DNA of 64,000 nt from Candidatus Magasanikbacteria bacterium UBA922 (lineage in GTDB: Bacteria > Patescibacteriota > Patescibacteriia > Magasanikbacterales > UBA922). Made by a program: the position numbers and the translations under genes. Shown here piece after piece: positions 25,701 to 56,088 of the stretch; position 1 is the first letter of the stretch, and every line of letters begins with the position of its first letter. The notes under the pieces were generated by a model that made no database searches, was not told the DNA's origin, and saw only the letters and a program-made list of their open reading frames with translations. The stretch lies in the NCBI GenBank assembly GCA_002293825.1, contig DBDW01000011.1, forward strand, positions 9,436 to 73,435, given 5' to 3'.

Positions 25701-26022
25701 CATACCCTTCACATCCAGCCCAGCGATTCACCGGATCAATTGGCGCTCCACCGATCACACTTCCCAATTTACCCCACGAGGGCCATTTTGAATTAGTATA
25801 TCCAGGAATATAGCTTCCACTTGAAAAGTTCAGATCTGGATTAATATTCTGCGCAGTAACTCGCACTGTCGCGAGACCAAAAAAAATAACAAAAACTATA
25901 CAGAAAAAATAAAACCCAAAACGATAATTCATACAAAACAATAATCGAGCTATATAACTAGTATAACACATTTCAATTGAACTGTTGATCTGTCCGATCT
26001 TGAGCAGATTGCAATTGCTCAA
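22759..26022 (-). CDS. large secreted protein with vWA domain and Cys-rich CGNGxxExGEECD repeats
   Basis: 1087 aa. MIDAS-type motif (LLDRSSSMS...ITDGTPTD). Repeats CGDGTVNVGEECD, CGNGIVEDGEECD, CGNRIIEGGEECD and CGNGRID. The 5' end overlaps the upstream gene, so the true start is probably a later Met. Confidence 0.6.
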   Translation of the reverse strand: MSNCNLLKIGQINSSIEMCYTSYIARLLFCMNYRFGFYFFCIVFVIFFGLATVRVTAQNINPDLNFSSGSYIPGYTNSKWPSWGKLGSVIGGAPIDPVNRWAGCEGYDDATCWSVASTTFKCPVFAQMYEYSYVTSTQSYQYHVPFEFIRPTDGAFVSQYARLNNLSFNRFCVPETVITPIGGRCGDGTVNVGEECDPPGRNRVVSIGPDGQVCPVGSYATVTCNASCQYSYVNACVGAPQMCGNGIVEDGEECDAGTRNGQYGSRCTTQCTSDSPRIGRNPPTGQFCGNGELDRNSNGSPLEFCEEVEGACLHLNDNGQIIKSRVHILLDRSSSMSAGNRWASAKTGLTTIFSDLLSQVDFSLSVFSSSTDVCYQGLGTVTDANSRFILDSVSPNGKTPSRCALQTVLDQRNAIFGTNDAVPKKLVFITDGTPTDANDEQVAEVIRLLNENSITTYVIGFSGVPTSTLNLFASAGGTSNPLSTTGDLFFRADRAHEFVTAFDGILGCFEYSQYKQNSCSWNCQDYGAYCGDRIVQVQYGEECDLGSQNGGGSGCTAYCKLPVNTATNMVCGNRIIEGGEECDDGNVSNGDGCSSQCRRESVGALCGNGPQSNDPASGLSRLDPGEECDLGSQNGSACVPGYNTSCTYCSNTCKTVTVEAVAYCGNGRIDSMNSSLTERCDYVGTAVYGPTSTEPIRCSDKGTVACLNSCQNLSMQCATCGLGLALPTPRISILNPMTQEGKSPFTPTVGYVDLYRKKNTNSSFTLDWLGYRKINYRTASDNTYIDPFEPYTLLINSNFQPITDRGLETNSLCDGEYALLFNKNHISQAVSGSISNTTPVQVVERGLGDLFEYSVRGEAGMVTNEVVMSPAVPENQIRVVVRWKQNGTVLFTGNVYQDNGRPYNTINYISTSTSGGNTWCGEAVKDSQGYYVPSNCVQVGNVWIHKILNPTSTTQGLQAFTFRTSQVMSLNTIGFYVSSPNGPLNQLKDYELWVDVYEYRLGQVPEHSIYKPTHSFVFKNAIPSANPLARYWHAFNLNVRTASSGAALGIGYEVVPIVGAPHGKIVTSECEVRAGMPNTTPCTLSGQ

Positions 26023-29000
26023 GCCGCTGTATATCTCTCATAAACTTAGTTGCAGCATTAGAACAAATACCATTCGTTCCTGTTTTTGGGAACCCATCAT
26101 TATTTCTACAATCGAAGTCCGTGACACATGCCAGATTGGTAATTGCCTCAGGAGTGTCGCGAACCGTATATTGATTACCCTCCTGCAAACAACGACCAAA
26201 ATTAGTAAGATTGGTATTAAACACAAGAGAGCCGAGGAGCTGTTCAAAAACCGCACGAGTATCACCACCAGCATTCGCATCAATAGTGAATAAATAAATA
26301 TTATTGTAGATAGAATCGTCTTCAATATTATATGCATTAACATACACACTCGTCTGACTAATCAATGCCGGGTAACCACCTACCGTGGTCTTTGTCATAC
26401 CTACGGTACTTCCAAATCGATCCGTATACCATTCTTCAATAGTTTTGCGTGATCCATCACGCGCGACAGGATTTGCAAAAATCTGAATACCTACCACATC
26501 ATTAGTGGTCTGAGAGAAAAATAAATATCGTCGAAGTGCATCAGGCATATCCATGTCAGAGATTGCACCTAATTCAGCAGGGTCTGTAACCACCTCAATT
26601 GAATTAAAGAATGGTAAATCATCAGTAACGGTAAGTGGATTTCCCTTATCCGCACAATAGGAAAAAGAAAAATTATATTTCGTATCTCTAAAGAGAGTAT
26701 CAACAAACGCCACATCTTCAGAGAGCGTTACATTTCCTGCAGGCCATGGTCGTTGACAAAATAGTGCATCGAGACTAATTATTGATGAATGTGTACGACC
26801 TTGTTGATTATTCTCCGTAGAGGTATCTACGGTAACACGCGCAGTAACCACACCATCAGTATGCCCCTTGAACCCTTTTGACGTGATACGATTATACGCA
26901 GTACTTGTAGCTGGTATATCAAATAATTGATCGTTATTTGGACCCCATGCCCATTCCCACTGATATGTACCAGTTACCGAGACAATTTTCTGTTCTGCAA
27001 AATTGGAAATTGCATACGCAATAAAGTCTTTTGAACTATTAGGTATCGTATACAAACTTTCTTCTGGGTCTACGGTTATGTGAGAAATCTTACAAACCTG
27101 CTCACTCGTTTTGAACATCCACTGATCAGATAAACTCGATGTAAACGGAGATTTTATACTTACCCCCAACGAGTTTCTAATTCCTTCAGTACCACCATTC
27201 AAAAGAACAGAGACATACCGATCACCATCCAATAGTTTTGTAGGATACACAGACACACGAGTAGAACCATCATCTGAATATGAAGCTTTCAATTCAAAAG
27301 GAATATTGGCAGTACACCACACCAAATCAGCAGGAACCTCTTGATTCGGCTCTGACGCAAAAACCGTAACTCGAATTAATCGGGCAAAAAAATTCTTTAT
27401 ATGACTCCACGCACGTACCCAAATACTCTCAGATACCTCTGTGGTCCTATCAAGTAATTCGTTCATAGCAAGTGTCACATTCGTACCACCATGAGAAGAA
27501 CATTCATAGCCCTGCGGATAACCCTGCACCAATTCAATATTATCTTGTGCATATTCAATTGGAATATTTTGATTAAACTCAACTTCAACGTATGTATTTC
27601 GACACACAGGAGCAGTACCAGGCGCAATTCCAGCATTTGCAGCAGGATATTCAGACACACGAATCGGACGCTCTACACAACATGAATTCCGTCCGACACC
27701 AAGCACATTACCCGGATTAGAAGGGCAATCATTGTATATACCACCACGATTCTCGGTATACTCTGTGTATCCACATCTGAGATAATAATCAGCATTTCCA
27801 GAAACAGGAGTAATATCAGTCGCAGCAAGACCAGATTCCAAAAATCTCGAAGTCTGAGCCACAACTTCTGTTTGCAGAAGTCCCACAACCTCTGTACCCG
27901 TATCACTCACCCCACCAACCGACGTAACCACTTGCACAGGATTATCTCCCAATGTTATACGTCTATCATCAGGTTCAGATTCACACGAAAGTACCTCATC
28001 ATCAAAATTACGATATTCGCCAATTCCAGTAATTCCATCTGCACACACGGATGGATTGATATATGTAATTGACGATCCTGCAAAAGTACAATCAGAAAGA
28101 CAGCCTGGCGCACCAGCTTGACACTGGGCAGCTGCTGTATCACATGCGTTTTGCACCAAACATCGATCAGAACATGTGTCTTTTCCATCGACATCCTGCT
28201 CACACTCTTCACCTTGTTCAATAATTCCATTACCACACACACTCAAAGCAGTACCACATACCTGCTGGACTTGTATTCGATTTACATTCTGATATCGTGG
28301 ATCATTAGGATTTCTGAGATATCCATCACACCACTGCTGTGAAAGCTGTGTGCCCCTATTAAGACACTGTACTGAACAATAGTTCGTACCATTAGAGTTA
28401 TCGATTTCACAGTCTTCTCCATACCCTACCTGACCACTCATACATACAGGAATAATGGTATTTTCGGTCAACTCTTGAGAAGATCCAGTATACAGACACG
28501 TGTTGGAACAAAAACCACTCAAGCCTTCAGGGGCACTTGCAGGATCGCATTCTTCACCCACACTCACATCAACCACACCATTACCACACTGCAAAAGTCC
28601 TGTACCAGTATTTGGCACACGCATACCATCGGCACCCATACTGGTATTACCAGGTCTAAGACAACTAAAGTTACAACTACTACCAGGAATTTCTCCTGCA
28701 CGTGCAATATCACAATCTTCACCGAGTTCCACAATACCATTTCCACAAATTGGGTATGGTGCAATAGCGCGCGCAATGTCACTTCCTGCTGGAGTACATC
28801 CAATGGTACAGGTATTTTTTGGACTTCCAGAAAAACTAAATTCACTCACTTTTGCAACACTTTGATTTGCTACCGACCAATCCCAACCAAACTGCCACGG
28901 ATTGAGAAGTTGTCCTTGTGGACTACACGAATCAGGAGAACCAATCGGTTGTGCTCGATATATTTTTGCTTGACCAATAAAAGTCGCAGTAAACGGATCA

Positions 29001-32000
29001 GGTTCCACTCGCACACTATCAGCCAAACAGAGCTGAGCCGAATCTTTAGTTTTAAATTTCCACTGTTTTGATTCAGCACTATTACCAAAACGTACCTCAG
29101 TAACACCTTCAGGATTATTACTCACGACCCCACCAATCGAACGGATACCAGAGCCCATCTGGACTAGATACCAACTATTTTTTTCAAGCGGTACATCTGG
29201 ATATGCACGAAAATATGACGCACTTTGTGAACCTACATTAATATCAAGTTTAAGTTGTGGACCAAGCGTTGCGGGATTGCAACTCTCATCTGCACATTTA
29301 CGCAGAGTAATATTTACTGGCGTAAAATCACCAATATTCATATATTGGCTAAATTCGATACCAATTTCAGCATTAACACATGCTTCGAGACACAATGGCC
29401 ACACACTCTTAGCATACGGATTACCCAAATCAATCACAAGAGTACTCGTAGCTACAATAGTTTCATCATTTTCAATAATTTGGGCTTCAATATCACTCCC
29501 CGTGGGACTATATTGCCAGGCAGTAGCATACCCATGTGAATTAGGTGCTCCTGATTTCTGTGCAGCAGTAGCTGGAGCATTTGTAGTAGGTCCCCACACC
29601 CACGGCTTATCATCTACATTAATAACCGTACACAACAAATTACTCGTACCCACCACCGTGTATGTTAATGGAACAACCGCATCGATATTGAATACCGCAT
29701 TCAAATCTTGATTTAATCCATAACGAGGATCTTGTACAATTCCAAGAAATTTAGTGGTACGTAAACTAGGATTGAGTAGCGCATCAGTGAGCGTACACAT
29801 AAAATCAGCAGGGCCTGTCCTAAAGTCGAAACAATATGCCCATTCACGACCACCCAACTCACAAGATTTTGTTTTTGCAAGAGGATCTCGATTCGAAACA
29901 AGTTGTCCAAACTCAGTACCACCTCGAAGAGATGTAACATCTGAGGAAAGCGCGACACGGTACCATGTATTTGGAAGCAAACGTTGTTCACTATCACGTA
30001 AATCAAAGAAAATGGTGTCATCAGAACTAAACGTTGGAACAAACTGTGTAGTAACATCAGACGAACCATTCGCACAGTTAATCACATTCTCATCTCCTCC
30101 ACAGGTAGCGATCGATACATTACGAATAGCATTTTCAAAAAATACAGAAGAAGGATCAATGGGAAGATTAAATGTAATTGCCAATCGTGAATTGACACAC
30201 TGATTTTTCCCTTCATTTATAGTGGTAGCAGGATCGTCCCACATCACCGAAGGACTGGGTGTAGGAACACTTCCCACCTTACACGACTCAACCACCTCAA
30301 ACGTTCGTGGCATTTTACCAGTCGTAAATCTCCACACATACCCTGCTTCACGTGGAATTCCTTGACATGCAAAATTTCCATGTTTCCACCGACCTTGATC
30401 TGGACCTTCAGTACAGCAGTGAAAGCCAGGTTTTGGTCCAGTATCTTCACGACAATCTAATACCGTATAATCAAGACCATTGCTCACCACCCCGGCTTCA
30501 TTCTCGACTTTGATAGGGCCTGTTGTCATTGAATATCCCGTTACCGGATCATATGGAATTGTAGTACGTATTTCCTGTCCATTAGCAGACGCACTCACAA
30601 TTGACGCACCCCCATATGCCTCGCCATATGCAAGAGAAAGCCAGGTAGTAGGATTAGCTGCCTGCGCAAGCGGATACCAAAATCGTACGACCGGATCAAT
30701 CGTTGTGCCTGCCACAAAATTTTCACCAATAATCTTGAGCGGTTTTGAAACATCAGAAAAAGGAGCAAAGCCACGAGTCGGTTCAATACGGCAAATACTT
30801 GGAGCAGGTGCACCATCGACAATAACTACAGACTCCTTTCCAGAACTTGCAAGCGCATTAACTCCGTCCCCACGTCTCACAATCACAAAATATGAACCAA
30901 GAGTAAATTCAGAAATATTAGGTACTCGTGCAACAATACTTGTATCACTCCACACATCTCCACACACAAGCGGCAATTCACCTGCAGTAAAACAACCACT
31001 TCCTGGACATGTGGTATTTGCATTTTGTGTAAAATACACCGTACCGTCATTCCCAAAACGATTTCCGGTAATTGTGATAAAACTACCTTTTGTAGTAGTA
31101 GACGGTTCAATTTTTGAAATCACCGGAGGAAACAAATCATCAATAGATGTAATCATGAAGGGCACCGGATTACTACGTTCACCACCCTGAGCAGTGACGT
31201 AGACTGGAACCCGATCCTCAATACCAAACGGAACATCTGCTGAAACCAACTCTGTACTCCAAGAAGAAACAGGTGCATTTTGTTGCCCAAACAAAGCGTC
31301 GCCCTGACCAGTTCCAAATCCCGCACCCTCAAGTGATAAGGTAGTACCTTGTGGCGCAGCAGTAGAACCTTTGGTAGAAGTTACCGTCCTACCATCATCA
31401 AGCGTAACCACTCGATCATTTGCAACAGTAACAGAACAAAGATTCGGACGTTGAGTAGTATTATAGGTAAACAACCCGAGCAAAGGCCCAAACAGATCAT
31501 TAGTAGAATCACTCAATCCATTCGCATCAGAAACAGAGATGGCAGGATTATTTGCAAACTGTGTCCCAATACCACCTGCATCAATAATTCGAAAACTTCT
31601 GTCAGAAAAATTGGTAACATAGACATATTTACCCACTGAAGCAACGCCAAATGGTTGCGATAAATCCACATTATTCTGAACGCTTCCTACAATACGCGGA
31701 GCCTGTGGATTGGTAAAATCGACAACGGCAAGACTATTCCCTCTACGATTAATAACAAATCCTTGTGTACCAAAAGTAGAAATTGCAAATGGGCCTGAAA
31801 AATACGTGTTATCCTGCAAAGAGCCAACAATAACTGGAGACACTGGATTACCCACATCGATTACGGCGACACTATTTCGATCAAATACAGTTACATAGGC
31901 ATACCGTCCAGCAACTGCGATTCCCGAAATATGGAACAAGGTATTATCATCCTTAACACTACCGACAATGACTGGATTTTGTTTATCAGAAATACGAATA

Positions 32001-34153
32001 ACATGCAAACTATTAGTGTAATAACTCGTAACATACGCATATTCACCTGAAACTGCAACATTTCGTATCGCCCCTAATCGATCATCAGTAATACTACCCA
32101 CTACCGAAGGAGTAGTTTTATTAGACACATCAATAATAAAAAAACTGTTTGTGCCTTCACTTGCGACATACGCATAATTACCAGAAACCGCTACGCCACG
32201 TGCAATCGAAAACAACTGAGGATTAACAAGATTTCCAACTACTACTGGTCTTGTCTTATCAGTAACATCAACAACACCAAAGCCATTTCCAAAAACCACA
32301 TATGCGTAATTACCAACCGTATGAACAAAATATGCACCAGGAATAGAGATTTTACTAACAACTTGCGGATTAGCAGGATTGGATATGTTAACTATATGCA
32401 AAAATCCAGACTGTTGCGCAGTGACATATGCATAATTTCCAGAAACAGAGACCGAACTCGCCCCATTCAATTCAAGATTATTTTTAATCCCACCTAAAAT
32501 TTCAAGTTGAGACACCCCACCTTCCTGCGTACTAATCTCAACAGGTAGTGGAACCTCAGCAATAATCCACGAGTCATTCCAGCTCCCACCCTCACGACAC
32601 TGAGCAAGACCAGCACCGACCGATGAATCAATGGTGCCGTTTTGATTATGATCATAATCAAAACGAATCGTACCAGGAGTAGTGCCAAAATTTCGCCCTG
32701 TAATCGTAATAAAATTCCCAGGAGCACCATTCATGTACTCAACTTTTGAAATATAAGGAGTCGCTGTACAGGTACAAGAAGTAGAACCATTACACACATT
32801 ATTAGAAGCATCAAGACATTTGAGCCAGTGAGAGCAGTCAGCGTGTGTTTCACAACTACCCCCCTCTCCTCCACCACACATTCCACCCTGATCAATCTCA
32901 TCCTCATCAGGATCCAAGACACCATTAAGACACGTGGGAGGAGTGACTCTAAAGCGCACAGTGTCTGAGATGGTATTAGTATCAATATCATGTGCAACCA
33001 CTTCTACCACATACACAGGACCAACCTCAAATCGATTTTCGAGAATAGTAATTCCACGCACAACCTCAAACGGCGCAGATGAACCCAAACTCAATCGAGG
33101 ACCATCAAGATAAAATTCAGTCACTGCACTCGTATCACCTTCTTTATACACACGAATACGTGCGTACGAATTACCATGGTCATCCCGAAGCGCAGTACGA
33201 ATAGAGTACGTTCTTCCAAGAATTACTGCATGAACACCATCCCCACTATACCCATTGATAGATACGGGGTCGAGTCCAGTAAAAGAAGTGTCCGAGACTG
33301 GTTCATTTCCAGTCCTAAACTGTGCAGTTGTAGCAAAAATTCCACAGGCTGTCTCAGTCGTAAGCTCACGACCGGTACGATCTCGTAACCCTTCTCTAAT
33401 ATTAACCGTATACGTTCCCACAGGAATAGTACCTGCCACAGGTATAGCCTCGACCAAACTTCCATCCTCATCAAAAGAAAATGTAAATTCACCACTTACG
33501 TCAGTTGAACCTAATTCAGTTGTTCGTGAGATAGAAAAAATTTCACCAGGCTGTCCTGCCACTGGATTACTAAAGAGTGCACGTACCACCACATTATTCA
33601 TGCCTGTAACGTCGTTCTCAGTCGGTGCATGCGGAGTAATACTTTTTACCACAAAATTAGCATCCACACACACCTGATCAGGTGGAAAACATCCGAGAGG
33701 ATCTTGACATCCATTTCCCGATCCACCAGCACCTCCACCACTAGTACTATCAGATCCATCAATTGCTCCTTGCAATCGATTCAACACAAATGAGGTAATA
33801 GCAAACGATGACATGATGATAGCCAACCCAATACCCGCATTGATCAATAATTTTTTTGCAGTAGTAATCTTTTCCTCATTTCCACCTGCAGTCATCCAGA
33901 CAAAACCAGCATAAAGCACAATACTCACACCAATAACACCAAGGAAACCCAAAAATATATTAATAATACGAACTACCGTGATTCGCAAATCAGAAGTATC
34001 TGAGGCAGAAATTGCAATAGAATCTCCGACAGGTTGTAATCCAAAATCATCTCCAGCTTGCGCATACACCACAAAAGAACCAGAAAAAATAGTACCTGCA
34101 ATTATCAGAAAAAAGAAAAAGGCAAGAGAGAAAATTATGGAAAAACGTTTCAT
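25973..34153 (-). CDS. giant (2726 aa) cell-surface protein: pilin-like double-TM N-terminal module, LVIVD-type beta-propeller repeats, IPT/TIG-like and Cys-rich repeats
   Basis: Continuous ORF. It has a signal peptide, then two TM helices separated by MTAGGNEEK, then repeated ~40-aa GNYAYV...VIDVSN units and CGNGIVELGEDCD repeats. Confidence 0.7.
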   Translation of the reverse strand: MKRFSIIFSLAFFFFLIIAGTIFSGSFVVYAQAGDDFGLQPVGDSIAISASDTSDLRITVVRIINIFLGFLGVIGVSIVLYAGFVWMTAGGNEEKITTAKKLLINAGIGLAIIMSSFAITSFVLNRLQGAIDGSDSTSGGGAGGSGNGCQDPLGCFPPDQVCVDANFVVKSITPHAPTENDVTGMNNVVVRALFSNPVAGQPGEIFSISRTTELGSTDVSGEFTFSFDEDGSLVEAIPVAGTIPVGTYTVNIREGLRDRTGRELTTETACGIFATTAQFRTGNEPVSDTSFTGLDPVSINGYSGDGVHAVILGRTYSIRTALRDDHGNSYARIRVYKEGDTSAVTEFYLDGPRLSLGSSAPFEVVRGITILENRFEVGPVYVVEVVAHDIDTNTISDTVRFRVTPPTCLNGVLDPDEDEIDQGGMCGGGEGGSCETHADCSHWLKCLDASNNVCNGSTSCTCTATPYISKVEYMNGAPGNFITITGRNFGTTPGTIRFDYDHNQNGTIDSSVGAGLAQCREGGSWNDSWIIAEVPLPVEISTQEGGVSQLEILGGIKNNLELNGASSVSVSGNYAYVTAQQSGFLHIVNISNPANPQVVSKISIPGAYFVHTVGNYAYVVFGNGFGVVDVTDKTRPVVVGNLVNPQLFSIARGVAVSGNYAYVASEGTNSFFIIDVSNKTTPSVVGSITDDRLGAIRNVAVSGEYAYVTSYYTNSLHVIRISDKQNPVIVGSVKDDNTLFHISGIAVAGRYAYVTVFDRNSVAVIDVGNPVSPVIVGSLQDNTYFSGPFAISTFGTQGFVINRRGNSLAVVDFTNPQAPRIVGSVQNNVDLSQPFGVASVGKYVYVTNFSDRSFRIIDAGGIGTQFANNPAISVSDANGLSDSTNDLFGPLLGLFTYNTTQRPNLCSVTVANDRVVTLDDGRTVTSTKGSTAAPQGTTLSLEGAGFGTGQGDALFGQQNAPVSSWSTELVSADVPFGIEDRVPVYVTAQGGERSNPVPFMITSIDDLFPPVISKIEPSTTTKGSFITITGNRFGNDGTVYFTQNANTTCPGSGCFTAGELPLVCGDVWSDTSIVARVPNISEFTLGSYFVIVRRGDGVNALASSGKESVVIVDGAPAPSICRIEPTRGFAPFSDVSKPLKIIGENFVAGTTIDPVVRFWYPLAQAANPTTWLSLAYGEAYGGASIVSASANGQEIRTTIPYDPVTGYSMTTGPIKVENEAGVVSNGLDYTVLDCREDTGPKPGFHCCTEGPDQGRWKHGNFACQGIPREAGYVWRFTTGKMPRTFEVVESCKVGSVPTPSPSVMWDDPATTINEGKNQCVNSRLAITFNLPIDPSSVFFENAIRNVSIATCGGDENVINCANGSSDVTTQFVPTFSSDDTIFFDLRDSEQRLLPNTWYRVALSSDVTSLRGGTEFGQLVSNRDPLAKTKSCELGGREWAYCFDFRTGPADFMCTLTDALLNPSLRTTKFLGIVQDPRYGLNQDLNAVFNIDAVVPLTYTVVGTSNLLCTVINVDDKPWVWGPTTNAPATAAQKSGAPNSHGYATAWQYSPTGSDIEAQIIENDETIVATSTLVIDLGNPYAKSVWPLCLEACVNAEIGIEFSQYMNIGDFTPVNITLRKCADESCNPATLGPQLKLDINVGSQSASYFRAYPDVPLEKNSWYLVQMGSGIRSIGGVVSNNPEGVTEVRFGNSAESKQWKFKTKDSAQLCLADSVRVEPDPFTATFIGQAKIYRAQPIGSPDSCSPQGQLLNPWQFGWDWSVANQSVAKVSEFSFSGSPKNTCTIGCTPAGSDIARAIAPYPICGNGIVELGEDCDIARAGEIPGSSCNFSCLRPGNTSMGADGMRVPNTGTGLLQCGNGVVDVSVGEECDPASAPEGLSGFCSNTCLYTGSSQELTENTIIPVCMSGQVGYGEDCEIDNSNGTNYCSVQCLNRGTQLSQQWCDGYLRNPNDPRYQNVNRIQVQQVCGTALSVCGNGIIEQGEECEQDVDGKDTCSDRCLVQNACDTAAAQCQAGAPGCLSDCTFAGSSITYINPSVCADGITGIGEYRNFDDEVLSCESEPDDRRITLGDNPVQVVTSVGGVSDTGTEVVGLLQTEVVAQTSRFLESGLAATDITPVSGNADYYLRCGYTEYTENRGGIYNDCPSNPGNVLGVGRNSCCVERPIRVSEYPAANAGIAPGTAPVCRNTYVEVEFNQNIPIEYAQDNIELVQGYPQGYECSSHGGTNVTLAMNELLDRTTEVSESIWVRAWSHIKNFFARLIRVTVFASEPNQEVPADLVWCTANIPFELKASYSDDGSTRVSVYPTKLLDGDRYVSVLLNGGTEGIRNSLGVSIKSPFTSSLSDQWMFKTSEQVCKISHITVDPEESLYTIPNSSKDFIAYAISNFAEQKIVSVTGTYQWEWAWGPNNDQLFDIPATSTAYNRITSKGFKGHTDGVVTARVTVDTSTENNQQGRTHSSIISLDALFCQRPWPAGNVTLSEDVAFVDTLFRDTKYNFSFSYCADKGNPLTVTDDLPFFNSIEVVTDPAELGAISDMDMPDALRRYLFFSQTTNDVVGIQIFANPVARDGSRKTIEEWYTDRFGSTVGMTKTTVGGYPALISQTSVYVNAYNIEDDSIYNNIYLFTIDANAGGDTRAVFEQLLGSLVFNTNLTNFGRCLQEGNQYTVRDTPEAITNLACVTDFDCRNNDGFPKTGTNGICSNAATKFMRDIQRLEQLQSAQDRTDQQFN

Positions 34154-34165
34154 AGTAAAATAATA

Positions 34166-36406
34166 TCAATAAGAAGAGGGGCTTCGATCTCTAGTACGAA
34201 GCATGTTCAAACATTCAGCAATATTAGAAGACGACTGTTCAGACGCACCCGGATCATACACACATGCCGTATCCATCTCAGGATCATCAGAGCTCACCTC
34301 AGCACACCCCACACCCTCGACATAATTACCCTCAGCATCAAAAACAGCAGTACAAGTAGAAGGGGTCTCGGGCGTAGTAAGAATATTTGCAGAAGGCCCT
34401 CGTCCAGGATAGAGACAATTTTGATTAACACTCTTTACAGTACTTGGAATAGAAGGTAAATAGTACAGATCAAGATTGTTCGGACCAAAATCACGATGGC
34501 TAATACGTGTCAATGTAGTATCGCCCCCAAACTCAGAATTAATCCAATATGCAATTGGAGGTAATTTTTTTTCATCCGCACACACGTTTGTGCCATCTCC
34601 ATCACTATCGATCGCAGCATCAGCACACACACCCGCAGGATATTCTTCAAGTGCAATTCCTGATGACGAACCATACCCTGACACACTATGGGCAATCATG
34701 CGTTTACTAAATTTGATATACATAGGAGCATCAGAAGAAATATCTTCAGCAGCTGCACCAGGAGTAATTTCTTGGACATAAGGCACACTTCGATCAATCG
34801 TATTTTCGACCAAAAAACCCCATGAATAATTATCAGGTGCTTTTTCAGTATTTCTAATAATCACAGAAGTTTGTGGATCGGGACGAACCAATCGATTAGT
34901 CGCAGCATTATTAGAAACATTATCAAGACCGTTAAAAGCAAGATCATAGATACCAGAAAATGGAACTGCTTCAAACGGAGCATCACTATTATTCGTAGAA
35001 ACCCCTGTTCTCAACAATACTTCATACGGATTCGTACATGCAGGACCCTGACACGAAACCGGCAGACAAAACATTTGCTCGCCACAACTATTCACTCCAC
35101 AAGCTTCTCCAGACACAAACTCAAGTGTTCTGTAACCATTTGATAATCTCCATGATCCTGGAGGAGAAACTCTATTTTCTGCAAAAACCTGATTTACTGG
35201 AGTAAAGGTGGAAAGTGTAGTTGCAGTTATCACAGACTCAGCAACCGTAGGGTCTATAGGCTCACTAAAAGTAATTTGAAGAATAGTATTTCGAGAAGTA
35301 GTCGCGCTTGCTCGAGGATAGACATCGACAACAGTAGGAGGATCAACATCGATAAAATTACCGGTGGTAAAATTCCATGTATACGGAACTCCATTACTAA
35401 AAATACTCTGATTCTGATCTGAGCGCACGATTGAAGTATTAAGACGCACTCGATACTGCACATCTTCAGTAGAAGATCCCAAATATTGATGAGGCTTAAA
35501 CACAAATGAAAACACGTTCCGCTCACTCGTGTATGTAGCAAGCGCAGCACTCGATACCCCAAGTGTATCAACAGTACTTGAGGTAAAATTTGATTCTGTA
35601 TCAATAGTAACCGCACTAGTTTTCAATTGATCACATTCAGCAGTTTTCGTATCTAGAATCCCATCACGATTGAGGTCTGCACAATCACCGAGATATGGAC
35701 GTGCTATCTCTTCAACAGGGGTCGCACTAGTCACTGGTACATCAGTAAGATCAACACATGTGGTAGTAGGTCCCATAAAATTAGCATCCCAGCATGTTCG
35801 ATTGGAATTTTCAATAATACTCAATGGATTGATTGGTAGACCAAACGTAACCACAATACTCGTATTACGAGCAACATTGAGCTGATTGCGAAGCGGATAA
35901 TGATCTTTTACCGATCGACCAAGTGCACCACTAAATGCATATGTTTGTACAGGAGGTGGAGATGAAGCAGATGGCGGAGTATATGTTTCTTGACCAGTAA
36001 GTGATCGCAAAATAAAACTAGTAATAACAAAAGCAGACATGATAATCGCAAGACCAATCACCCCATTGATCAACATTTTTTTTGCACTACTAATCTGCTC
36101 TTCATTTCCACGAGAAGTCATCCATAAATATCCCGCATATAACACAATAGACACTGCAACCAACCCTAAAAATCCTAAAAAGAAATTTATAATTCTCACC
36201 ACTAGAACACGCAAGTCCGCATTTGGATTAGCAGGAATATTGATATTCTCACCAACCCCAACAACCCCAAAATCATCCTGCTGTGCATGTGCCAACAGTG
36301 CGCTCCCAAAAAATAAAAAGCAGGCTAAAAACACAAAAGCGACCATACGACGAAATCGCATAGTAGCTTGCGTGTGTGTAGCTTGTGATCGAGTCTTCGG
36401 GAGCAT
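34166..36406 (-). CDS. large (746 aa) surface protein with the same pilin-like N-terminal module
   Basis: The N-terminal 140 aa are about 65% identical to the N-terminus of 25973..34153 (DDFGV...DLRVLVVRIINFFLGFLGLVAVSIVLYAGYLWMTSRGNEEQISSAKKMLINGVIGLAIIMSAFVITSF). Confidence 0.65.
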   Translation of the reverse strand: MLPKTRSQATHTQATMRFRRMVAFVFLACFLFFGSALLAHAQQDDFGVVGVGENINIPANPNADLRVLVVRIINFFLGFLGLVAVSIVLYAGYLWMTSRGNEEQISSAKKMLINGVIGLAIIMSAFVITSFILRSLTGQETYTPPSASSPPPVQTYAFSGALGRSVKDHYPLRNQLNVARNTSIVVTFGLPINPLSIIENSNRTCWDANFMGPTTTCVDLTDVPVTSATPVEEIARPYLGDCADLNRDGILDTKTAECDQLKTSAVTIDTESNFTSSTVDTLGVSSAALATYTSERNVFSFVFKPHQYLGSSTEDVQYRVRLNTSIVRSDQNQSIFSNGVPYTWNFTTGNFIDVDPPTVVDVYPRASATTSRNTILQITFSEPIDPTVAESVITATTLSTFTPVNQVFAENRVSPPGSWRLSNGYRTLEFVSGEACGVNSCGEQMFCLPVSCQGPACTNPYEVLLRTGVSTNNSDAPFEAVPFSGIYDLAFNGLDNVSNNAATNRLVRPDPQTSVIIRNTEKAPDNYSWGFLVENTIDRSVPYVQEITPGAAAEDISSDAPMYIKFSKRMIAHSVSGYGSSSGIALEEYPAGVCADAAIDSDGDGTNVCADEKKLPPIAYWINSEFGGDTTLTRISHRDFGPNNLDLYYLPSIPSTVKSVNQNCLYPGRGPSANILTTPETPSTCTAVFDAEGNYVEGVGCAEVSSDDPEMDTACVYDPGASEQSSSNIAECLNMLRTRDRSPSSY

Positions 36407-36432
36407 GGGAAAACCGAATAACTCACACTGAA

Positions 36433-38689: not shown

Positions 38690-39325
38690 CTAAGATTGAG
38701 TAGTGGAAACCCCAGTCATATATTCAGGATGTTCAAACGTAGAAATACGACTAAATGGCCACCCACGAAACCATACTCGCCCAACAATATATTCTTCCTT
38801 AATTGCCCCAAAACGTCGAGAGTCGAAACTCGCATCACGATTATCTCCTAGGACAAAATATTCATCAGGACCGAGCGTAGTGGACAAAGAACCTGGTGTT
38901 TCTTCGACAAGATATGATTCAGAAAGAACCCATCCACGAGGATTTTCTTCGTTATAAATAATCACCTTATTATTCTCAACCTTAATCCGCTCTCCAGGTA
39001 ATGCAATAATACGCTTGAGATAATAATCAGTGTTAATCGGTGATTTAAATACTACCACTTCTCCACGTTGTGGAGTGCGCATACGATAACTAATTTCATC
39101 AATAATCAAATAATCTTTTTCATGAAACGTGGGCTCCATCGACTGTCCTTTTACATAAAATGGCTTAAAAAGAAAGTACCGAACCAAACCAATCGTAATT
39201 CCCGCTAAAATCGAAATCTTAATAATTTCAAGAAAAAAAAGCGCGATCTTACTCAGCAACCCCTTCTCATGTACATCATCATTAAAATTCTCAGTAGACT
39301 GAAAATTTTGATTAAACTCGGCCAT
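38690..39325 (-). CDS. lepB: signal peptidase I
   Basis: GQSMEPTF (S26 catalytic Ser box) and VLGDNRDASFDSRRFG. Confidence 0.85.
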   Translation of the reverse strand: MAEFNQNFQSTENFNDDVHEKGLLSKIALFFLEIIKISILAGITIGLVRYFLFKPFYVKGQSMEPTFHEKDYLIIDEISYRMRTPQRGEVVVFKSPINTDYYLKRIIALPGERIKVENNKVIIYNEENPRGWVLSESYLVEETPGSLSTTLGPDEYFVLGDNRDASFDSRRFGAIKEEYIVGRVWFRGWPFSRISTFEHPEYMTGVSTTQS

Positions 39326-50985: not shown

Positions 50986-51582
50986 TTATTGCAACCAGAC
51001 ACCCGCTACGAGCCACTGAGTGCCTGACTTGAGCATATCGACCTGTGCAGTAATCATCACCGTCTCAGAACTAGAATCAATTCCTCGAGTAGTCTGTCGG
51101 GCTCCGACTTCCACCTGCGCTTTTTCTGGTGTGTACGACACAATACGTGTACTCAAAACTTCGGTAGTAACCCCCTGATACGTGAGATGCTGTTCTTGTG
51201 AATGAGATCTAATCCATTCGTGCATTCCCGATGCAGCGAGTGCCAACGCATCTTCAATATGCTGATTATCATTTTGATTCGAGTAACTCCAAAAACGTTC
51301 TACAAATATACGTGCAGACTGTTTTGCATAAATTTCATCTGGACTTTCCTGCACACTCGTCTCTGACTGAGGAAGCGTATCAGGACGCCTAAATTCTACA
51401 TTCTCAATCGGGGGTAGCTCGACCTCTACACGCTCGTCAGCCAGAGGTGGAATTTCGACGGTCTCAGGATCACGAAGGATCAGAAAAAACAATATTCCAA
51501 GAATACTGAGTATGCCCCCACCCCCAATCAGTAAAATACGTGTTCGTAATGTAAGCATATAGTACAAATTAGTAGATAACAA
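50986..51582 (-). CDS. hypothetical bitopic membrane protein, possibly VirB8-like (N-terminal TM + periplasmic domain)
   Basis: Single N-terminal TM (ILLIGGGGILSILGILFFLIL) and a ~150-aa soluble domain. The VirB8 assignment rests on position and topology only. Confidence 0.3.
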   Translation of the reverse strand: MLSTNLYYMLTLRTRILLIGGGGILSILGILFFLILRDPETVEIPPLADERVEVELPPIENVEFRRPDTLPQSETSVQESPDEIYAKQSARIFVERFWSYSNQNDNQHIEDALALAASGMHEWIRSHSQEQHLTYQGVTTEVLSTRIVSYTPEKAQVEVGARQTTRGIDSSSETVMITAQVDMLKSGTQWLVAGVWLQ

Positions 51583-51587
51583 TCACA

Positions 51588-53453
51588 TTATGATCGGCGT
51601 TCTCCCAGTTGACTTGATTTAAATTCTTTTTTCGCCCGCTCAATTTCTAATAATTGTTGTGGATTCGAGGTAACCAACTGATCTTCGGTATACGAAGCTA
51701 CAATCTGTATTGCAGCATGACGATTTCCTGCAAAGAAAATCCCCTGCCCCACTCCACTATCAAGTAACAAGTATTTCTCACCCTCAGTCAACATAAATGT
51801 TTTCTGAATCATATCCACTGCCGAAGGAGATTGTCTCAACAATAATTGCATAGCAGAGTTATTTACAATTGCCTGACCATAGGGTGATCGAAGAAAATCA
51901 TTCACATCCTGTGTAATCGTCGTCACTCCGAGATAATATTTACGACATCGTTTTACCAATGCGTACATAAATTTAGCACTATCTTCATGAAGCATGAGCC
52001 ACCACGCTTCATCAATAATCAACAATCGACGTTTCTTCTCTGAACGCACAATATTCCAAATATAATTAATCAATGTATAAATGGCCATCGGGCGTAATTC
52101 ATCTTCAAGATCACGCACACTAAATATAACCAATTGATTATTCATATTCACATTAGTCGGCGAATTGAACAATCCTGAAAACGTACCTTCAGTGTATTTT
52201 CGCAATTTGAGTGCCAATGTCTCAGCACCATCCATTCCTTCGAGCACATCAAGCAAATCCTGCATAATCGGAACTTCGACGGTCGACAAATCAGACAATG
52301 TAGTAATATCTTTCTTTGCATACGCTTCCAATACTGCTCGATCGAGAATTGAGTCTTCCTGTGCAGTCATCGTACCAAACATGATACGGAGCAATCCTTT
52401 GAGCGTAATAACTGCACTGCGAATAATATCTTCAGTCGAAATTTGCTGACCCACCGGTCGAGGCAAATCAAATGGATTAACTTTACTTTCTGACGCAAGT
52501 GAAATATTGATATACGTACCACCCACTGCTTCAGAAAGATGTACATATTCCATTTCAGGATCAATCACAATGATATCAGTACCCATCATAAGACTACGAA
52601 GAATTTCCAACTTCACTGCATATGATTTTCCTGCACCAGATGTAGCAAATACCACCATATTCGCATTCTGGAGAGAAAACCGATCAAACAAAATCAAACT
52701 ATTATTATGCTTATTGATTCCATACAAAATACCATTATCACTCGTAAGTTCCGTTGAAATAAATGGAAACGATGCAGCAATCGGACTCGAATTCATGTTG
52801 AATGAAATAACCAGCTCATCCATACCAAGCGGAACAGTAGAATTGAATCCTTGCTCTGATTGATACAGCACGTGTTTACTGTGAATCAATTTGGAACCAA
52901 AAATATTATGAATATCCTCAGTCACTCGTTCGAGCTCTTCTTTTGAAGAAGCATACAGAGTAACATAAAAAGCAAACTGAAAAAAATGCTCAATTCCCTG
53001 AGTCAAATCATCTCGAAGCTGTTCAACATCTCTCAAGGCAGTTTCCCGAATCGGATCACGTGGCGCACCCTTCTCAGTATCTGCATTGATCTGTGCTTGT
53101 AGGGCACCTACCTTTTTTTTCAATTGTTTCAAAATAACGGTAGCATTGACTGGATAAAAAAACATCGAGACATCCATGGTAAGATTCAAATTGAGAATCG
53201 GACTCGACCACCCAATAGAAATATATCGAGGATATGATACGACAAAAATCGTACGCAAAAAGATGCTTCCTAATTGTAAAAAATTAGACTCTACATTGAA
53301 GGCAGAAGGTGCAATGAGATCCCGAAGTGCAACCGTACCTTCACGATAGACACGTTCTTCTTCAAGCGTAACCAAAGTCTCATCAGTATGGGGTACTGAA
53401 CGCCCTTTATTTTTGCGACTTCGTGAATCAAGTGATACGGGTTGGAATGGCAT
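51588..53453 (-). CDS. VirB4/TraC/PrgJ-family conjugal-transfer-type ATPase (ATPase portion)
   Basis: Walker A VFATSGAGKSY, Walker B LLIIDEAWW, and VirB4 C-terminal motifs. Confidence 0.85.
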   Translation of the reverse strand: MPFQPVSLDSRSRKNKGRSVPHTDETLVTLEEERVYREGTVALRDLIAPSAFNVESNFLQLGSIFLRTIFVVSYPRYISIGWSSPILNLNLTMDVSMFFYPVNATVILKQLKKKVGALQAQINADTEKGAPRDPIRETALRDVEQLRDDLTQGIEHFFQFAFYVTLYASSKEELERVTEDIHNIFGSKLIHSKHVLYQSEQGFNSTVPLGMDELVISFNMNSSPIAASFPFISTELTSDNGILYGINKHNNSLILFDRFSLQNANMVVFATSGAGKSYAVKLEILRSLMMGTDIIVIDPEMEYVHLSEAVGGTYINISLASESKVNPFDLPRPVGQQISTEDIIRSAVITLKGLLRIMFGTMTAQEDSILDRAVLEAYAKKDITTLSDLSTVEVPIMQDLLDVLEGMDGAETLALKLRKYTEGTFSGLFNSPTNVNMNNQLVIFSVRDLEDELRPMAIYTLINYIWNIVRSEKKRRLLIIDEAWWLMLHEDSAKFMYALVKRCRKYYLGVTTITQDVNDFLRSPYGQAIVNNSAMQLLLRQSPSAVDMIQKTFMLTEGEKYLLLDSGVGQGIFFAGNRHAAIQIVASYTEDQLVTSNPQQLLEIERAKKEFKSSQLGERRS

Positions 53454-53522
53454 ACATAAATCGTAAGTCTATAAAATCTTCAGAGAAAAAGTGGAAAACT
53501 GAAAATACATCACCACCTCTCT

Positions 53523-54218
53523 TTACATAGGCAAATCATCTTCCACCTGCTGACTACGGATGTCACCCAATTGCTCAGCATAGGAAATATCTGGATTATA
53601 GGTACTATAATACAATTCAATCAATGCTTGCGTATCGAGTGCCACCACCTCGAGCCCCATACTAGTAAGACCACTCTCAATCTGCCGCACTCGTAAATCA
53701 AGATTTTCTTTTCGTCGCCTAAACTGTTCTTCTTTCAATTTGAGTGTAAACGTAGGTGTAAGCACTTCTTTAAAACGAGACCAAAAACCTTTTTTCTGAT
53801 CGTCCAATGGAGAATACGGTACGACCACAAAATATCGTTTCGTCATGATTTTACCAATATCGACCAACTCTTCGATAAACAATCGATAATCAGCTATCTG
53901 CACACGAAGCAATTCATTGGGCTGTTCACGTTCCAATTTTGCCAAATTATCCAAATACGGCTTAATCTGCAAACGTCGAGACTGTACCACCACCTGAATC
54001 GGAAAATCTAATGAATTCAAAAAACCAACGTATGCCGAAATAATCGCATTCTGCTCGTCTTCTGATTTCAAAGCAAAATTAATACTCGACGTGAGAAGCA
54101 CCCGTCGCATCGTACCATCCTTCAGAACCACGACCCCATCTTTTATTTCAGCAATCGGTAAATGAGCCTGACTACTCGGCTGTGAAATTCTTTTTTGTAC
54201 TGCTTTCTTATCTTTCAT
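53523..54218 (-). CDS. VirB4-family N-terminal domain encoded as a separate ORF
   Basis: LPIAEIKDGVVVLKDGTMRRVLLTSSINFALKSEDEQNAIISAYVGFLNSLDFPIQVVV matches the conserved N-terminal region of Gram-positive VirB4 homologs. It lies 70 bp upstream of the ATPase ORF. Confidence 0.5.
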   Translation of the reverse strand: MKDKKAVQKRISQPSSQAHLPIAEIKDGVVVLKDGTMRRVLLTSSINFALKSEDEQNAIISAYVGFLNSLDFPIQVVVQSRRLQIKPYLDNLAKLEREQPNELLRVQIADYRLFIEELVDIGKIMTKRYFVVVPYSPLDDQKKGFWSRFKEVLTPTFTLKLKEEQFRRRKENLDLRVRQIESGLTSMGLEVVALDTQALIELYYSTYNPDISYAEQLGDIRSQQVEDDLPM

Positions 54219-54300
54219 AACATGTTAGTAGTATACCACGATGACCCCATTCTTGACACATCATTCCTGGACACACATGAATGATGAAAAAATATATACA

Positions 54301-54735
54301 TTATGAATCCGTATCCTCTTCTCGATAATACCCTCCCGTGTTCACAAGTAAAGACAAATCTTGAATACGCTCACGTTTTACCGGTTTTACCTCAGGCCGT
54401 GCTTCAGGCTCTTCAGGAACATACTTTCTCAATACATGTAATTCTTTGCTACTCAAAGTTTTATGCCAGACTCGTCGACTTGGACGTCTCAGTGTCTGAA
54501 TCATATTCAACAAAAAATAATGAAACGCCTGACCATTAACTTTGACAAATGCAATTACCAATCCTCCACCTCCAAAAAAAATAAGAGAAAAAAGAAATAA
54601 CGAAAAATCACCAAATCGAAATGACAAAAAAACCACGAGCCCCACTACCAACAAAATTAAAAACTGCCGAGTCGTAATCGGACCCAAAATTCGATCTTCT
54701 ACATCAATAAATTGTGGAACGACAAATTGTTGCAT
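54301..54735 (-). CDS. PrgI/VirB3-like small membrane protein
   Basis: FIDVEDRILGPITTRQFLILLVVGLVVF pattern plus a second TM. It lies upstream of VirB4, as for prgI-prgJ. Confidence 0.5.
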   Translation of the reverse strand: MQQFVVPQFIDVEDRILGPITTRQFLILLVVGLVVFLSFRFGDFSLFLFSLIFFGGGGLVIAFVKVNGQAFHYFLLNMIQTLRRPSRRVWHKTLSSKELHVLRKYVPEEPEARPEVKPVKRERIQDLSLLVNTGGYYREEDTDS

Positions 54736-54835
54736 GAAACAATACTTAACACAAGATATTACAAAATTTACACAGAATATTCGATACGTACCGACAAAAC
54801 TATACAGGTAATGAATACCACCAATCTATTCATGA

Positions 54836-56059
54836 TCAATCCATCATTTCGAATTTTCGATTCACCTCGATAAGTGCTTGGTATTCAGTATATGACAACT
54901 GACCTTCTCGCAATACAGTAGCTACCGTCTGCCGTGTCTCGAGTGCCCTGACCGTGCATTCAATGTACATACGATATAATGGACTCTGTCTCCAACTATC
55001 TCGCACCTGCAAGTATAACAAGTATGATTCATCTTTCCAACCACTAAATTTTGACAACACCATGTCTCCTGCAGTTTTCGGATCACGTGACAGACGTCTA
55101 AAATCATCAATCGAAAATGAAAGTATTTCTTCTCGTGGCCCCATAACCGCAGGAACAGTATCACCTGAACGCACCTCCTGAATAACACGAGCAGGTGCAT
55201 GTACTGGAGGAATACTCGGTTTCGGCGGAAGCGGAGGAGCCGATGATGCACGTGGTGGTACAGGTTTCGGTGCAGACGCACTCACCAACGTAGCATTGCC
55301 GGATATTTCAAAAAATAATTTCTGTGTATCATCAAGAGACAATCCCAATCCACCATCAGCAGGAGATTTCATCGCATACTCACGAAACTGATGCTCATCT
55401 CGAATACCTTTTTTCCACGACAAAACCAATGCGTTCAGACGAGCTTCCAAATCTTTGGGAAAAGTTACTGAACTAGAAAAATTCACCTGTGTAGTAGGTA
55501 GGTGATACACACTCTCTCGCTCACGCAAAGAATTGATTTCAGACACATCTTCATCGAGCAATGAGCGAAGATCTTCTTTTTTTGTACTCACCACAGGCAC
55601 TGCGACCGATGATTGCGGATGCTGAAATATCCGAGCTACCGGAGTAGTAGTCGCGAGATGTTGTTCGGGCACTACCTGAGGAACGGCAGACGAAGGAATA
55701 GACACATTCGTCTCAGAGGTAGAAGCGGATACAGTAGTAGGGATAATCGGGATCACACGTCGAGGGGTAGGAGACGAAGGTTTTGAAGTGGCGACAGTAG
55801 GGATAATCGGAATTGGACGACGTACCTCACCCTTGTGAGCCACCAGTGGTTTTACATGCGGCACATCTTTATGAGGAATAGAAGAAACTGTACTCGTCTC
55901 ACGAGCAGAATTACTACGATCTTTTGTGTCAGATACCCCGCTTTCCGTACGTTTCATCTGTTTACGCTTCTTGAATTCCTCGAGCGTGATACGCTCGGTC
56001 GTACCATCTGATTTCTTGATAAGGATGGTGGGTTGTTGCTTGATAATTGAATCTGTCAT
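54836..56059 (-). CDS. hypothetical Pro/Ser-rich protein in T4SS-like cluster
   Basis: 407 aa. Low-complexity P/S/T-rich central region. No recognised domain. Confidence 0.4.
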   Translation of the reverse strand: MTDSIIKQQPTILIKKSDGTTERITLEEFKKRKQMKRTESGVSDTKDRSNSARETSTVSSIPHKDVPHVKPLVAHKGEVRRPIPIIPTVATSKPSSPTPRRVIPIIPTTVSASTSETNVSIPSSAVPQVVPEQHLATTTPVARIFQHPQSSVAVPVVSTKKEDLRSLLDEDVSEINSLRERESVYHLPTTQVNFSSSVTFPKDLEARLNALVLSWKKGIRDEHQFREYAMKSPADGGLGLSLDDTQKLFFEISGNATLVSASAPKPVPPRASSAPPLPPKPSIPPVHAPARVIQEVRSGDTVPAVMGPREEILSFSIDDFRRLSRDPKTAGDMVLSKFSGWKDESYLLYLQVRDSWRQSPLYRMYIECTVRALETRQTVATVLREGQLSYTEYQALIEVNRKFEMMD

Positions 56060-56088
56060 ATAAATTCGATCTTAGAATAATTGGAGTC

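Follow-up and report, generated by a model that had tools for sequence, protein, structure and literature searches.

A 64,000-nucleotide stretch of contig DBDW01000011.1 from Candidatus Magasanikbacteria bacterium UBA922, an uncultivated ultra-small member of the Patescibacteria (assembly GCA_002293825.1, positions 9,436 to 73,435; hereafter the window) carries two adjacent genes, A and B, whose products of 746 and 2726 aa begin with related two-helix modules of the type IV secretion system (T4SS) pilin family PF18895 and continue into long regions of predicted adhesin-like domains. The pair is conserved across related loci, the module is the most constrained part of the A family, and within a genome the modules of A and B co-evolve. 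We put forward, as a reading with roughly an even chance of being right, that A and B are VirB2/TrbC-type pilins of modular build, displaying adhesin-like domains in a T4SS-related surface assembly. An earlier note on this DNA had described the two open reading frames (ORFs), compared their shared N-terminus to T4SS pilins and proposed an attachment function. Both ORFs are present exactly as described there and its interpretation is partly supported overall; that A and B form an attachment device is something we infer.

Architecture and predicted topology of A and B

The ORFs of A and B lie on the same strand, separated by 12 nt (Table 1), and their products are significantly similar at the N-terminus only (BLASTP E=3e-37; residues 24-138 of A against 15-129 of B). 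The previously reported figure of 65% identity over 140 aa holds for the mature module, in which 63 of 98 residues (64%) are identical, but not for the first 140 aa taken with the signal peptides, over which identity is about 50%; over the 75-aa two-helix core it reaches 71%. Hydropathy analysis revealed three hydrophobic segments in each protein, all N-terminal, in agreement with the signal peptide and two hydrophobic helices noted before. AlphaFold2 modeled the helices of A (residues 64-97 and 102-136) as a hairpin with a predicted local distance difference test score (pLDDT) >90; the mean pLDDT of the model of A is 85.8. Residues 140-163 are disordered in this model (pLDDT <50), and the ectodomain that follows is β-rich and confidently folded (pLDDT ~95). 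The peptide quoted in the earlier note, YAGYLWMTSRGNEEQISSAKKMLINGVIGLAIIMSAFVITSF, occurs in A, but the loop between the helices, TSRGNEEQISSAKK, is not really Gly-rich, as it had been called. Residues 130-150 of B probably form a comparable linker, judging by their likeness to the disordered linker of A.

Both N-termini are long classical Sec leaders with AxA-type sites. Following the -3/-1 rule, the leader of A would be cleaved at AHA|QQ, and the family alignment shows conservation of both M1 and the A-Q junction; B would be cleaved at VYA|QA or, two residues on, at AQA|G. The hairpin loop contains R/K and its flanks are acidic, and we therefore predict an N-out, loop-in, C-out topology, which would place all residues past the hairpin outside the cell.

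The ectodomain of A contains a Big_5 domain (46.7 bits). In B, Pfam profiles matched LVIVD (Table 1), TIG (37.8 bits) and Big_5 (57.8 bits), and the protein carries Cys-rich repeats of the form CGNGxxExGEECD, so that the LVIVD, IPT-like and Cys-rich regions recognized earlier are all present; the score against the choice-of-anchor B model TIGR04312 (55.8 bits) lies under its cutoff. These Ig-like, β-propeller, TIG and Cys-rich domains support, at the level of sequence, an adhesin-like character of both ectodomains.

Table 1 Features of the window and of the related pilin arrays. Coordinates are those of the window, except for the arrays, which are given in their own loci.
Feature	Coordinates	Strand	Description
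Gene A, 746 aa	34166..36406	(-)	Candidate modular VirB2-type pilin with an Ig-like ectodomain behind signal peptide, pilin hairpin and linker
A signal peptide, aa 1-41	36284..36406	(-)	Hydrophobic segment 18-42; long basic n-region; predicted signal peptidase I site AHA|QQ
A pilin module, aa 42-138	35993..36283	(-)	Short N-extension, helix 1 (64-97), loop TSRGNEEQISSAKK, helix 2 (102-136)
A linker, aa 139-163	35918..35992	(-)	Flexible, Pro/Ser-rich; low pLDDT
A ectodomain, aa 164-746	34169..35917	(-)	β-sandwich chain (Big_5/CopC-like Ig), 16 Cys
Gene B, 2726 aa	25973..34153	(-)	Candidate modular VirB2-type pilin with giant adhesin-like ectodomain
B signal peptide, aa 1-31	34061..34153	(-)	Hydrophobic segment 1-33; aligns with the predicted A cleavage site
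B pilin module, aa 32-129	33767..34060	(-)	PF18895 27.3 bits (first 150 aa); 64% identity to A module
B linker (probable), aa 130-150	33704..33766	(-)	Gly/Ser-rich, sequence AIDGSDSTSGGGAGGSGNGCQ
LVIVD β-propeller block in B, ~aa 550-900	31454..32506	(-)	LVIVD 136.6 bits, 5 stretches; lineage-variable insert
Gene C, ~1,070 aa	22759..26022	(-)	Secreted VWA and Cys-rich-repeat protein; likely ATG at 25971
lepB (signal peptidase I)	38690..39325	(-)	Peptidase_S26 142.8 bits; 2.3 kb upstream of A
T4SS-like cluster	50986..60494	(-)	14.6 kb from the A start codon; 16 genes away
VirB6-like polytopic protein, 1127 aa	57111-60494	(-)	7-8 N-terminal hydrophobic segments; long coiled-coil tail
Unknowns in the T4SS-like cluster	56089-57114 and 54836-56059	(-)	
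PrgI/VirB3-like	54301-54735	(-)	PrgI 36.4 bits against a threshold of 27
TrsD/VirB4-N-like, 231 aa	53523-54218	(-)	Weak matches
VirB4 ATPase, 621 aa	51588-53453	(-)	NF045971 CD1110-type 360 bits against a cutoff of 325; PF19044 103 bits
Bitopic 198-aa protein	50986-51582	(-)	
PF18895 arrays	L086 3776-14089; L087 5708-13895		One SBP_bac_1 solute-binding-protein gene embedded in each

The N-terminal module belongs to the T4SS_pilin family

The pilin-like character of the module, postulated in the earlier note, was borne out by profile hidden Markov models. Over their first 150 aa, A and B scored 32.1 and 27.3 bits, respectively, against PF18895 (T4SS_pilin), for which the curated gathering threshold is 26.6 bits; A at full length scored 27.5 bits. 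The database orthologues carry precomputed PF18895 annotation, and all 107 members of our aligned family matched this model. All residues invariant among stand-alone pilins (G81, G92, T97, G100, A108, G118 and L119) are present in the A module, as is the polar loop motif WMT..GNEE, and the nearest relatives of the module are stand-alone pilins with 45-68% identity. These data support membership of the module in the T4SS_pilin family.

The relation to the classical VirB2/TrbC pilins (PF04956, gathering threshold 27.9 bits) appears remote but consistent. PF04956 matched 55 of the 107 family members at E<=1e-3, the best at 8e-10, and hhalign aligned the family, over 58 columns, with a profile that we built from nine authentic VirB2/TrbC proteins of annotated MPF_T plasmids, with both helices in register and a common G-x-W-M motif (71.5% probability, E=3.6e-5). 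The Mycoplasma model NF045849, which describes a pilin-like family of integrative and conjugative elements (ICEs), scored 27.5 bits on A and 25.7 bits on B (E~1e-6), under its cutoff of 40.

Other results pull in the opposite direction. Taken as the full 2726 aa, B scores 21.0 bits against PF18895, below threshold; PF04956 reaches a sub-threshold 20.8 bits (E=4.5e-4) on the first 150 aa of A and does not match B. A profile search of PDB chain sequences with the module family retrieved no T4SS pilin, its sole match being noise (E=0.46), and fold searches returned generic helical hairpins and no specific solved T4SS pilin, although a hairpin of two helices is too generic for such searches to be informative on the pilin fold. 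Such results, together with an hhalign probability of just 71.5% and the fact that in ABY1-type genomes neither the pilin arrays described below nor the A-B pair adjoin virB4, would suit a convergent or misnamed two-transmembrane motif with no relation to T4SSs, PF18895 itself having been named by inference. We consider this explanation very unlikely in view of the PF04956 matches in about half of the family, the in-register alignment with its shared motif and the independent match to a conjugative-element family. Furthermore, in Saccharibacteria the family is encoded within an essential T4SS cluster (PMC10633639), and a pilin gene lies near virB4 in 1,135 of 1,948 assemblies, an arrangement that is typical but not obligatory (PMC12102498).

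A and B are not stand-alone pilins: known PF18895 members measure 110-270 aa, and neither gene lies beside the virB4 cluster, which is ~15 kb and 16 genes away. Both proteins have the modular-pilin architecture of an N-terminal pilin module, a linker and a non-pilin module. Their N-termini lack a class III signal peptide, with no G|F-x-x-x-E motif and no N_methyl Pfam match. Without these features of type IV pilins, A and B are analogues of the type IV modular pilins, not members of that group.

The A-B pair is conserved at a housekeeping locus

Searching with the module only gave ~2,000 matches, the best 120 of which were all short stand-alone pilins (114-267 aa). A profile search of the whole library matched 72,328 representative clusters; the best 150 clusters included 16 long proteins with a single module (698-4,219 aa, twelve of them >1,800 aa), located at about residues 5-145, and all 16 belong to the A or B family. 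With full-length A as query, 166 proteins were retrieved, and the best 120 of these were 591-1,109 aa long and 30-100% identical to A, nearly all with the architecture PF18895+PF13205. When the search was taken to other Candidate Phyla Radiation (CPR) genomes, as the earlier note had envisaged, A-type proteins were found in at least 524 of them, mainly of Magasanikbacteria type, in a scan of one genome per GTDB species. Since ~80% of Patescibacteria assemblies carry VirB4 (PMC12102498), co-occurrence of the module with VirB4 is not discriminating.

The titles of the A-bearing records name Magasanik-, Uhr-, Falkow- and Komeilibacteria. Many locus-bearing GTDB records (L006-L009, L017, L025, L053 and others) are titled 'uncultured Gammaproteobacteria bacterium', evidently a placeholder or wrong name in a bulk submission of metagenome-assembled genomes, and some A homologues are publicly annotated as 'pilin' or 'Ig-like domain-containing protein'.

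At ~75 of 80 loci, an A-type gene (~540-830 aa) is followed directly, on the same strand, by a second pilin-headed gene, which ranges from 927 to >3,500 aa across the loci inspected. Upstream of A lie lepB (74 of 83 loci), hisS (77/83) and rpsU (78/83), giving the conserved order lepB-hisS-rpsU(-yqeY)-A-B. The adjacency of lepB may simply reflect conserved housekeeping gene order; its product, signal peptidase I, is a candidate enzyme for removing the leaders of A and B. None of the 83 loci has a T4SS gene in its 10-kb flanks, and we dropped the idea that A and B are members of a T4SS operon.

The sequence is metagenome-derived and its ORFs are very long, as would be expected if a mis-assembly or gene-calling error had fused a small pilin to a downstream adhesin gene. 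We rejected such an artefact, which we regard as almost inconceivable: the reading frame is unbroken, an identical A gene is present in four independent assemblies, and the same architecture is kept across hundreds of species at 27-77% identity.

Constraint and within-genome co-evolution of the modules

No 75-aa window in the A family is more conserved than the two-helix core, which has a mean pairwise identity of 59.6% compared with 41.6% in the ectodomain. Between the A and B cores of the same genome, identity is 62.1%, versus 51.3% for A-A, 54.1% for B-B and 50.9% for A-B comparisons across genomes. Permuting the partners gave 51.1+/-0.6, and the observed value was reached in 0 of 10000 permutations. 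For 27 of 74 A modules the best-matching B was that of the same genome, and in 41 of 74 genomes the own B outscored at least 90% of the orthologous A modules. Because the duplication that gave rise to A and B is older than all these genomes, independent divergence cannot yield such own-genome likeness.

Codon usage shows episodic gene conversion between A and B in some genomes: at identical residues the same codon is used in 47.3% of cases against 38.2% expected, and in locus L068 in 50 of 61. For the window, recent conversion as the source of the A/B likeness was rejected, the same codon being used 24 times against 23.7 expected. With 71% protein identity and no conversion in the window, the likeness must also be maintained at the protein level. 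The simplest reading of these comparisons would be that the A and B modules touch each other or a common partner.

The strongest conservation in the protein, combined with within-genome co-evolution, argues that the module is not a passive anchor. Still, the hairpin could be a co-opted pilin element that merely tethers an envelope coat or adhesins, such as S-layer-like Ig chains, perhaps as an A-B hetero-oligomer in the bilayer, with no filament and no dependence on a T4SS. This we think possible but rather doubtful. A plain anchor needs hydrophobicity alone, yet the module is the most conserved segment and retains all the residues invariant in stand-alone pilins along with the polar loop motif; its closest kin are bona fide stand-alone pilins; and a leader plus a two-helix hairpin would be unusually elaborate for anchoring a Sec-exported protein.

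Stand-alone pilins and the T4SS-like cluster

A six-frame translation of the 64-kb window, searched unfiltered with a narrow and a broad family model, contained no further copy of the module and no stand-alone pilin. In related genomes, the nearest stand-alone pilins occur in arrays of 11-12 PF18895 genes that are not beside virB4. Upstream of two such arrays (L086 and L087) lie an NTP_transferase gene and N_methyl (type IV pilin-like) genes. Array members carry the module at either the N-terminus or the C-terminus, with C-terminal extensions of 60-110 aa or N-terminal extensions of 190-300 aa, and extensions at either terminus fit a topology with both ends external. The lineage therefore has three separate loci, namely a pilin array, a T4SS core and an A-B(-C) set that includes the further gene C described below, and the arrays supply candidates for its major pilin.

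Many database proteins (P0241, P0246, P0267, P0242 and others) contain 2-17 tandem T4SS_pilin hairpins per ORF behind a single signal peptide; P0241, for instance, has 552 aa and six modules joined by short Gly/Ser/Thr linkers. These 'poly-pilins' recall the concatenated c-ring subunits of some ATP synthases, and we found no description of them.

The T4SS-like cluster reported previously at about 14 kb from the giant genes starts 14.6 kb from the start codon of A (Table 1). The 1127-aa protein has no profile match, and its hydrophobic segments suggest a VirB6-like protein. VirB4 function is apparently split between the 231-aa N-like ORF and the 621-aa ATPase that follows, which aligns to the C-terminal three quarters of the models. 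Neither a coupling protein (VirD4) nor a relaxase was found among the window ORFs of at least 85 aa plus one 52-aa ORF, and their absence is typical of Patescibacteria T4SSs (PMC12102498). With comF adjoining it and no coupling protein or relaxase, the make-up of the cluster fits that described for the Patescibacteria class ABY1 (PMC12102498).

Between 56001 and 60000, a region that spans the VirB6-like gene and a 341-aa unknown, the G+C content drops to 0.35-0.37 from a window average of ~0.41, possibly owing to a coiled coil rich in Lys/Glu or to a separate evolutionary origin. The cluster edge carries a truncated 52-aa GIY-YIG nuclease ORF (60579-60737, (-)); a second small one (97 aa) is found at 8529-8822 (-), and both may be remnants of mobile endonucleases.

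A model for A and B as modular pilins

If A and B are modular pilins, Sec would export their preproteins and LepB would cut off the leaders. The hairpin would then rest in the cytoplasmic membrane with both ends outside, the basic loop inside and the C-terminal region extracellular. There the module would work as a pilin, making specific contact with its partner module and/or with stand-alone pilins and the VirB4/VirB6 machinery, and A and B would be inserted at low copy number into a surface structure that the Patescibacteria T4SS builds from pilins. As growth of T4SS pili proceeds from the base, a position at the tip seems the most plausible; at the tip, A and B could take the adhesin role held elsewhere by VirB5 or PrgB. 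Contact with the host cell would be made by the Ig-like, propeller, TIG, VWA and Cys-rich domains, and the variable inserts of B (LVIVD, Laminin_G or VWA) would tune specificity.

Apart from the profile and structure searches given above, several points weigh against this model. At all 83 related loci the 10 kb around the A-B pair are free of T4SS genes, and in the window ~15 kb and 16 genes separate the cluster from the pair, which lies amid housekeeping genes. The window itself encodes no stand-alone pilin that could serve this genome as a major pilin. Ectodomains of 600-2,600 aa cannot sit on every VirB2-type subunit, which makes a minor or tip subunit an added assumption, and an A-B complex residing purely in the membrane, with no filament, could account for the co-evolution of the modules. 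Finally, a pilus has been demonstrated for no Patescibacteria T4SS (PMC10633639, PMC12857230).

VirB4-mediated pilin dislocation is established for Agrobacterium, which raises the question of whether A and B are handled by the T4SS as cargo. VirB4 would then pull the hairpin from the membrane, and the giants would be released or passed to the host surface and not polymerized. A conserved, pilin-like module suits this idea, as does the absence of a coupling protein and a relaxase from Patescibacteria T4SSs, both in the window and more generally (PMC12102498, PMC10633639), which leaves their substrate unknown. We nevertheless judge it unlikely, as direct evidence is absent, no cleavage or release motif was identified, and Sec export already places the ectodomains outside, which makes extraction unneeded for exposure.

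The modular-pilin reading also has a bolder extension, which we offer tentatively and regard as rather less probable than the model itself: in ABY1-type Patescibacteria the VirB2 hairpin may have become a general carrier for surface display, and A and B (perhaps with C) may form a complex that primes, or sits at the tip of, the T4SS pilus of a monoderm cell, a covalent pilin-adhesin in place of VirB5 or PrgB whose A and B modules would co-evolve because they co-assemble. If true, the same carrier logic would explain the array pilins with terminal extensions and the poly-pilins with 2-17 hairpins; this would be the first T4SS filament with adhesins of several hundred kDa, and a previously unrecognized T4SS-dependent surface organelle for host attachment in uncultivated episymbionts.

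Comparison with known systems and significance

VirB2-like pilins and pilin arrays have been published, as has their essentiality in Southlakia, and the giant fusions appear new: the literature that we searched, with incomplete coverage, contained no description of a VirB2-type pilin fused to a large ectodomain. The VirB2-like pilins of Patescibacteria (PF18895) share with A and B the family, the leader, the N-extension, the two helices and the conserved loop, as well as the phylum and the T4SS type (VirB4/VirB3/VirB6, no relaxase). They have been described as small, however, whereas A and B add extracellular regions of 600 and 2,600 aa. They are also encoded in an array or a T4SS cluster, as in Southlakia epibionticum, whose essential array is found within the T4SS cluster (Wang et al. 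2023, PMC10633639), whereas A and B constitute a fixed gene pair at a housekeeping locus. Paralogues within arrays are reported to diverge strongly, with an identity of 25% on average, in contrast to the co-evolving modules of A and B. The survey PMC12102498 reports no adhesins, and its supplementary table gives PF18895 hits without lengths, and giants such as A and B would therefore have been counted as ordinary VirB2. The description of the N-terminus as resembling 'Gram-positive-type' T4SS pilins in the earlier note is a misnomer, given that pilins are normally absent from Gram-positive T4SSs, with Patescibacteria noted as the exception (PMC12857230).

The classical pilins VirB2, TrbC and TraA (PF04956) resemble A and B in their long Sec leader, two-helix hairpin and G-x-W-M motif at the end of helix 1, and both of their termini are extracytoplasmic, the topology that we predict for A and B. 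Differences include scores below the PF04956 threshold, a loop about eight residues longer, the monoderm cell, the lack of evidence for cyclization or acetylation in A and B, and the enormous ectodomains; we know of no classical VirB2 homologue with a large ectodomain. Small hairpin proteins of Mycoplasma ICEs (Mbov_0395/MMCAP2_0565, NF045849) offer another parallel: their module comprises 80 aa, A and B match the whole model, and the Mycoplasma proteins come from a monoderm MPF_FATA-type T4SS. Unlike A and B, these proteins are small, stand alone and are encoded beside VirB4.

In design, A and B are closest to the type IV modular pilins PilB and PilC of Streptococcus sanguinis and CofB (PMC8179133), with an N-terminal pilin module, a linker and a bulky module. 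The adhesive modules of these pilins (vWA, lectin and β-repeat) are proposed to occupy the tip of the filament (Raynaud et al. 2021, PMC8179133), and vWA is also present in C and in fused B-like proteins. The scaffolds, however, are non-homologous: type IV pilins have a class III signal peptide, a prepilin peptidase and a single N-terminal helix, none of which is seen in A and B, and they depend on type IV pilus machinery as opposed to a T4SS. The ectodomains of A and B are up to an order of magnitude larger. In function, the proposed role coincides with that of VirB5 (Gram-negative tip adhesin) and PrgB (Gram-positive), which make contact with the target cell; neither has a sequence or fold relation to A and B or is a pilin fusion, and PrgB is sortase-anchored. 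No PrgB-type adhesin has been detected in Patescibacteria, and VirB5 is likewise missing (Quinonero-Coronel et al. 2025, PMC12102498).

The T4SS is nearly universal in Patescibacteria, with no known substrate, adhesin or demonstrated pilus, and in the one species tested it is essential for epibiotic growth (PMC10633639). In this setting, the A-B pair is a concrete candidate, plausible but unproven, for the missing host-contact component of the CPR T4SS. The 'modular pilin' principle would thereby extend from type IV pili to an unrelated T4SS pilin scaffold. VirB2-family proteins are not necessarily small, and surveys that count PF18895 hits lump in proteins of up to ~4,200 aa. The co-evolution of the modules gives a testable prediction of physical co-assembly, and the variable inserts of B are candidate determinants of host specificity. 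These considerations have their limits: the lineage is uncultivated, the proposed functional tie of A and B to the T4SS is drawn from homology, and the domains themselves are ordinary adhesin modules.

The B family, gene C and downstream genes

Residues 1-500 and 900-2726 of B are kept in ~90% of 70 B-like proteins, whereas the LVIVD region (~550-900) aligns in just 9-48% of them; in B-like proteins of other genomes, Laminin_G or VWA modules take its place. Immediately downstream, the likely ATG of gene C lies 1 nt past the stop codon of B (25973-25975; junction 25969-26022). The C protein has an N-terminal hydrophobic segment and contains VWA (47 bits), DUF4215 and TIGR02232 (48.6 bits) domains.

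The mature C protein lines up collinearly with the last ~1,000 aa of fused B-like ORFs, sharing, for example, 55% identity with residues 2387-3324 of the ORF at 12234-22223 in locus L001. C forms a separate ORF solely in the window and in its closest relatives, L006-L009; elsewhere the region is mostly part of one ORF of 3,300-3,500 aa. Judging from this comparison, C is the split-off C-terminal third of an ancestral B giant, produced by gene fission, with the detached part gaining its own leader. A single frameshifted gene comprising B and C was rejected, as C begins with a hydrophobic leader of its own and L006-L009 share the split. Given the collinearity of C with the fused ORFs, A, B and C form one functional unit.

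Downstream of C, at 20306-22727 (-), are genes for two small thrombospondin type-3 (Ca-binding) repeat proteins and a 391-aa unknown. Each of the three has a hydrophobic segment, homologues are found downstream in 8-14 loci with long enough flanks, and the genes may belong to the same surface operon as A, B and C. A promoter and terminator consensus scan of 20000-39500 gave counts at or below the shuffled expectation, and no operon boundaries were callable.

Other features of the window

The neighbors of A and B in the window are the housekeeping genes of a bacterium with a small genome, among them polIII-alpha, ftsA/Z, SMC, hisS, lepB and ribosomal protein genes. Three tandem tRNA-Ser genes with the anticodons TGA, GCT and ACT lie at 48747-49089 (+). 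A serine anticodon with A34 (ACT) is unusual for bacteria; with an Rfam score of 60.3 bits, this one looks like a genuine tRNA. A 766-aa ORF at 2736-5036 (+) gave weak β-propeller-like matches (DUF6923, DUF6242) and may encode a further surface protein.

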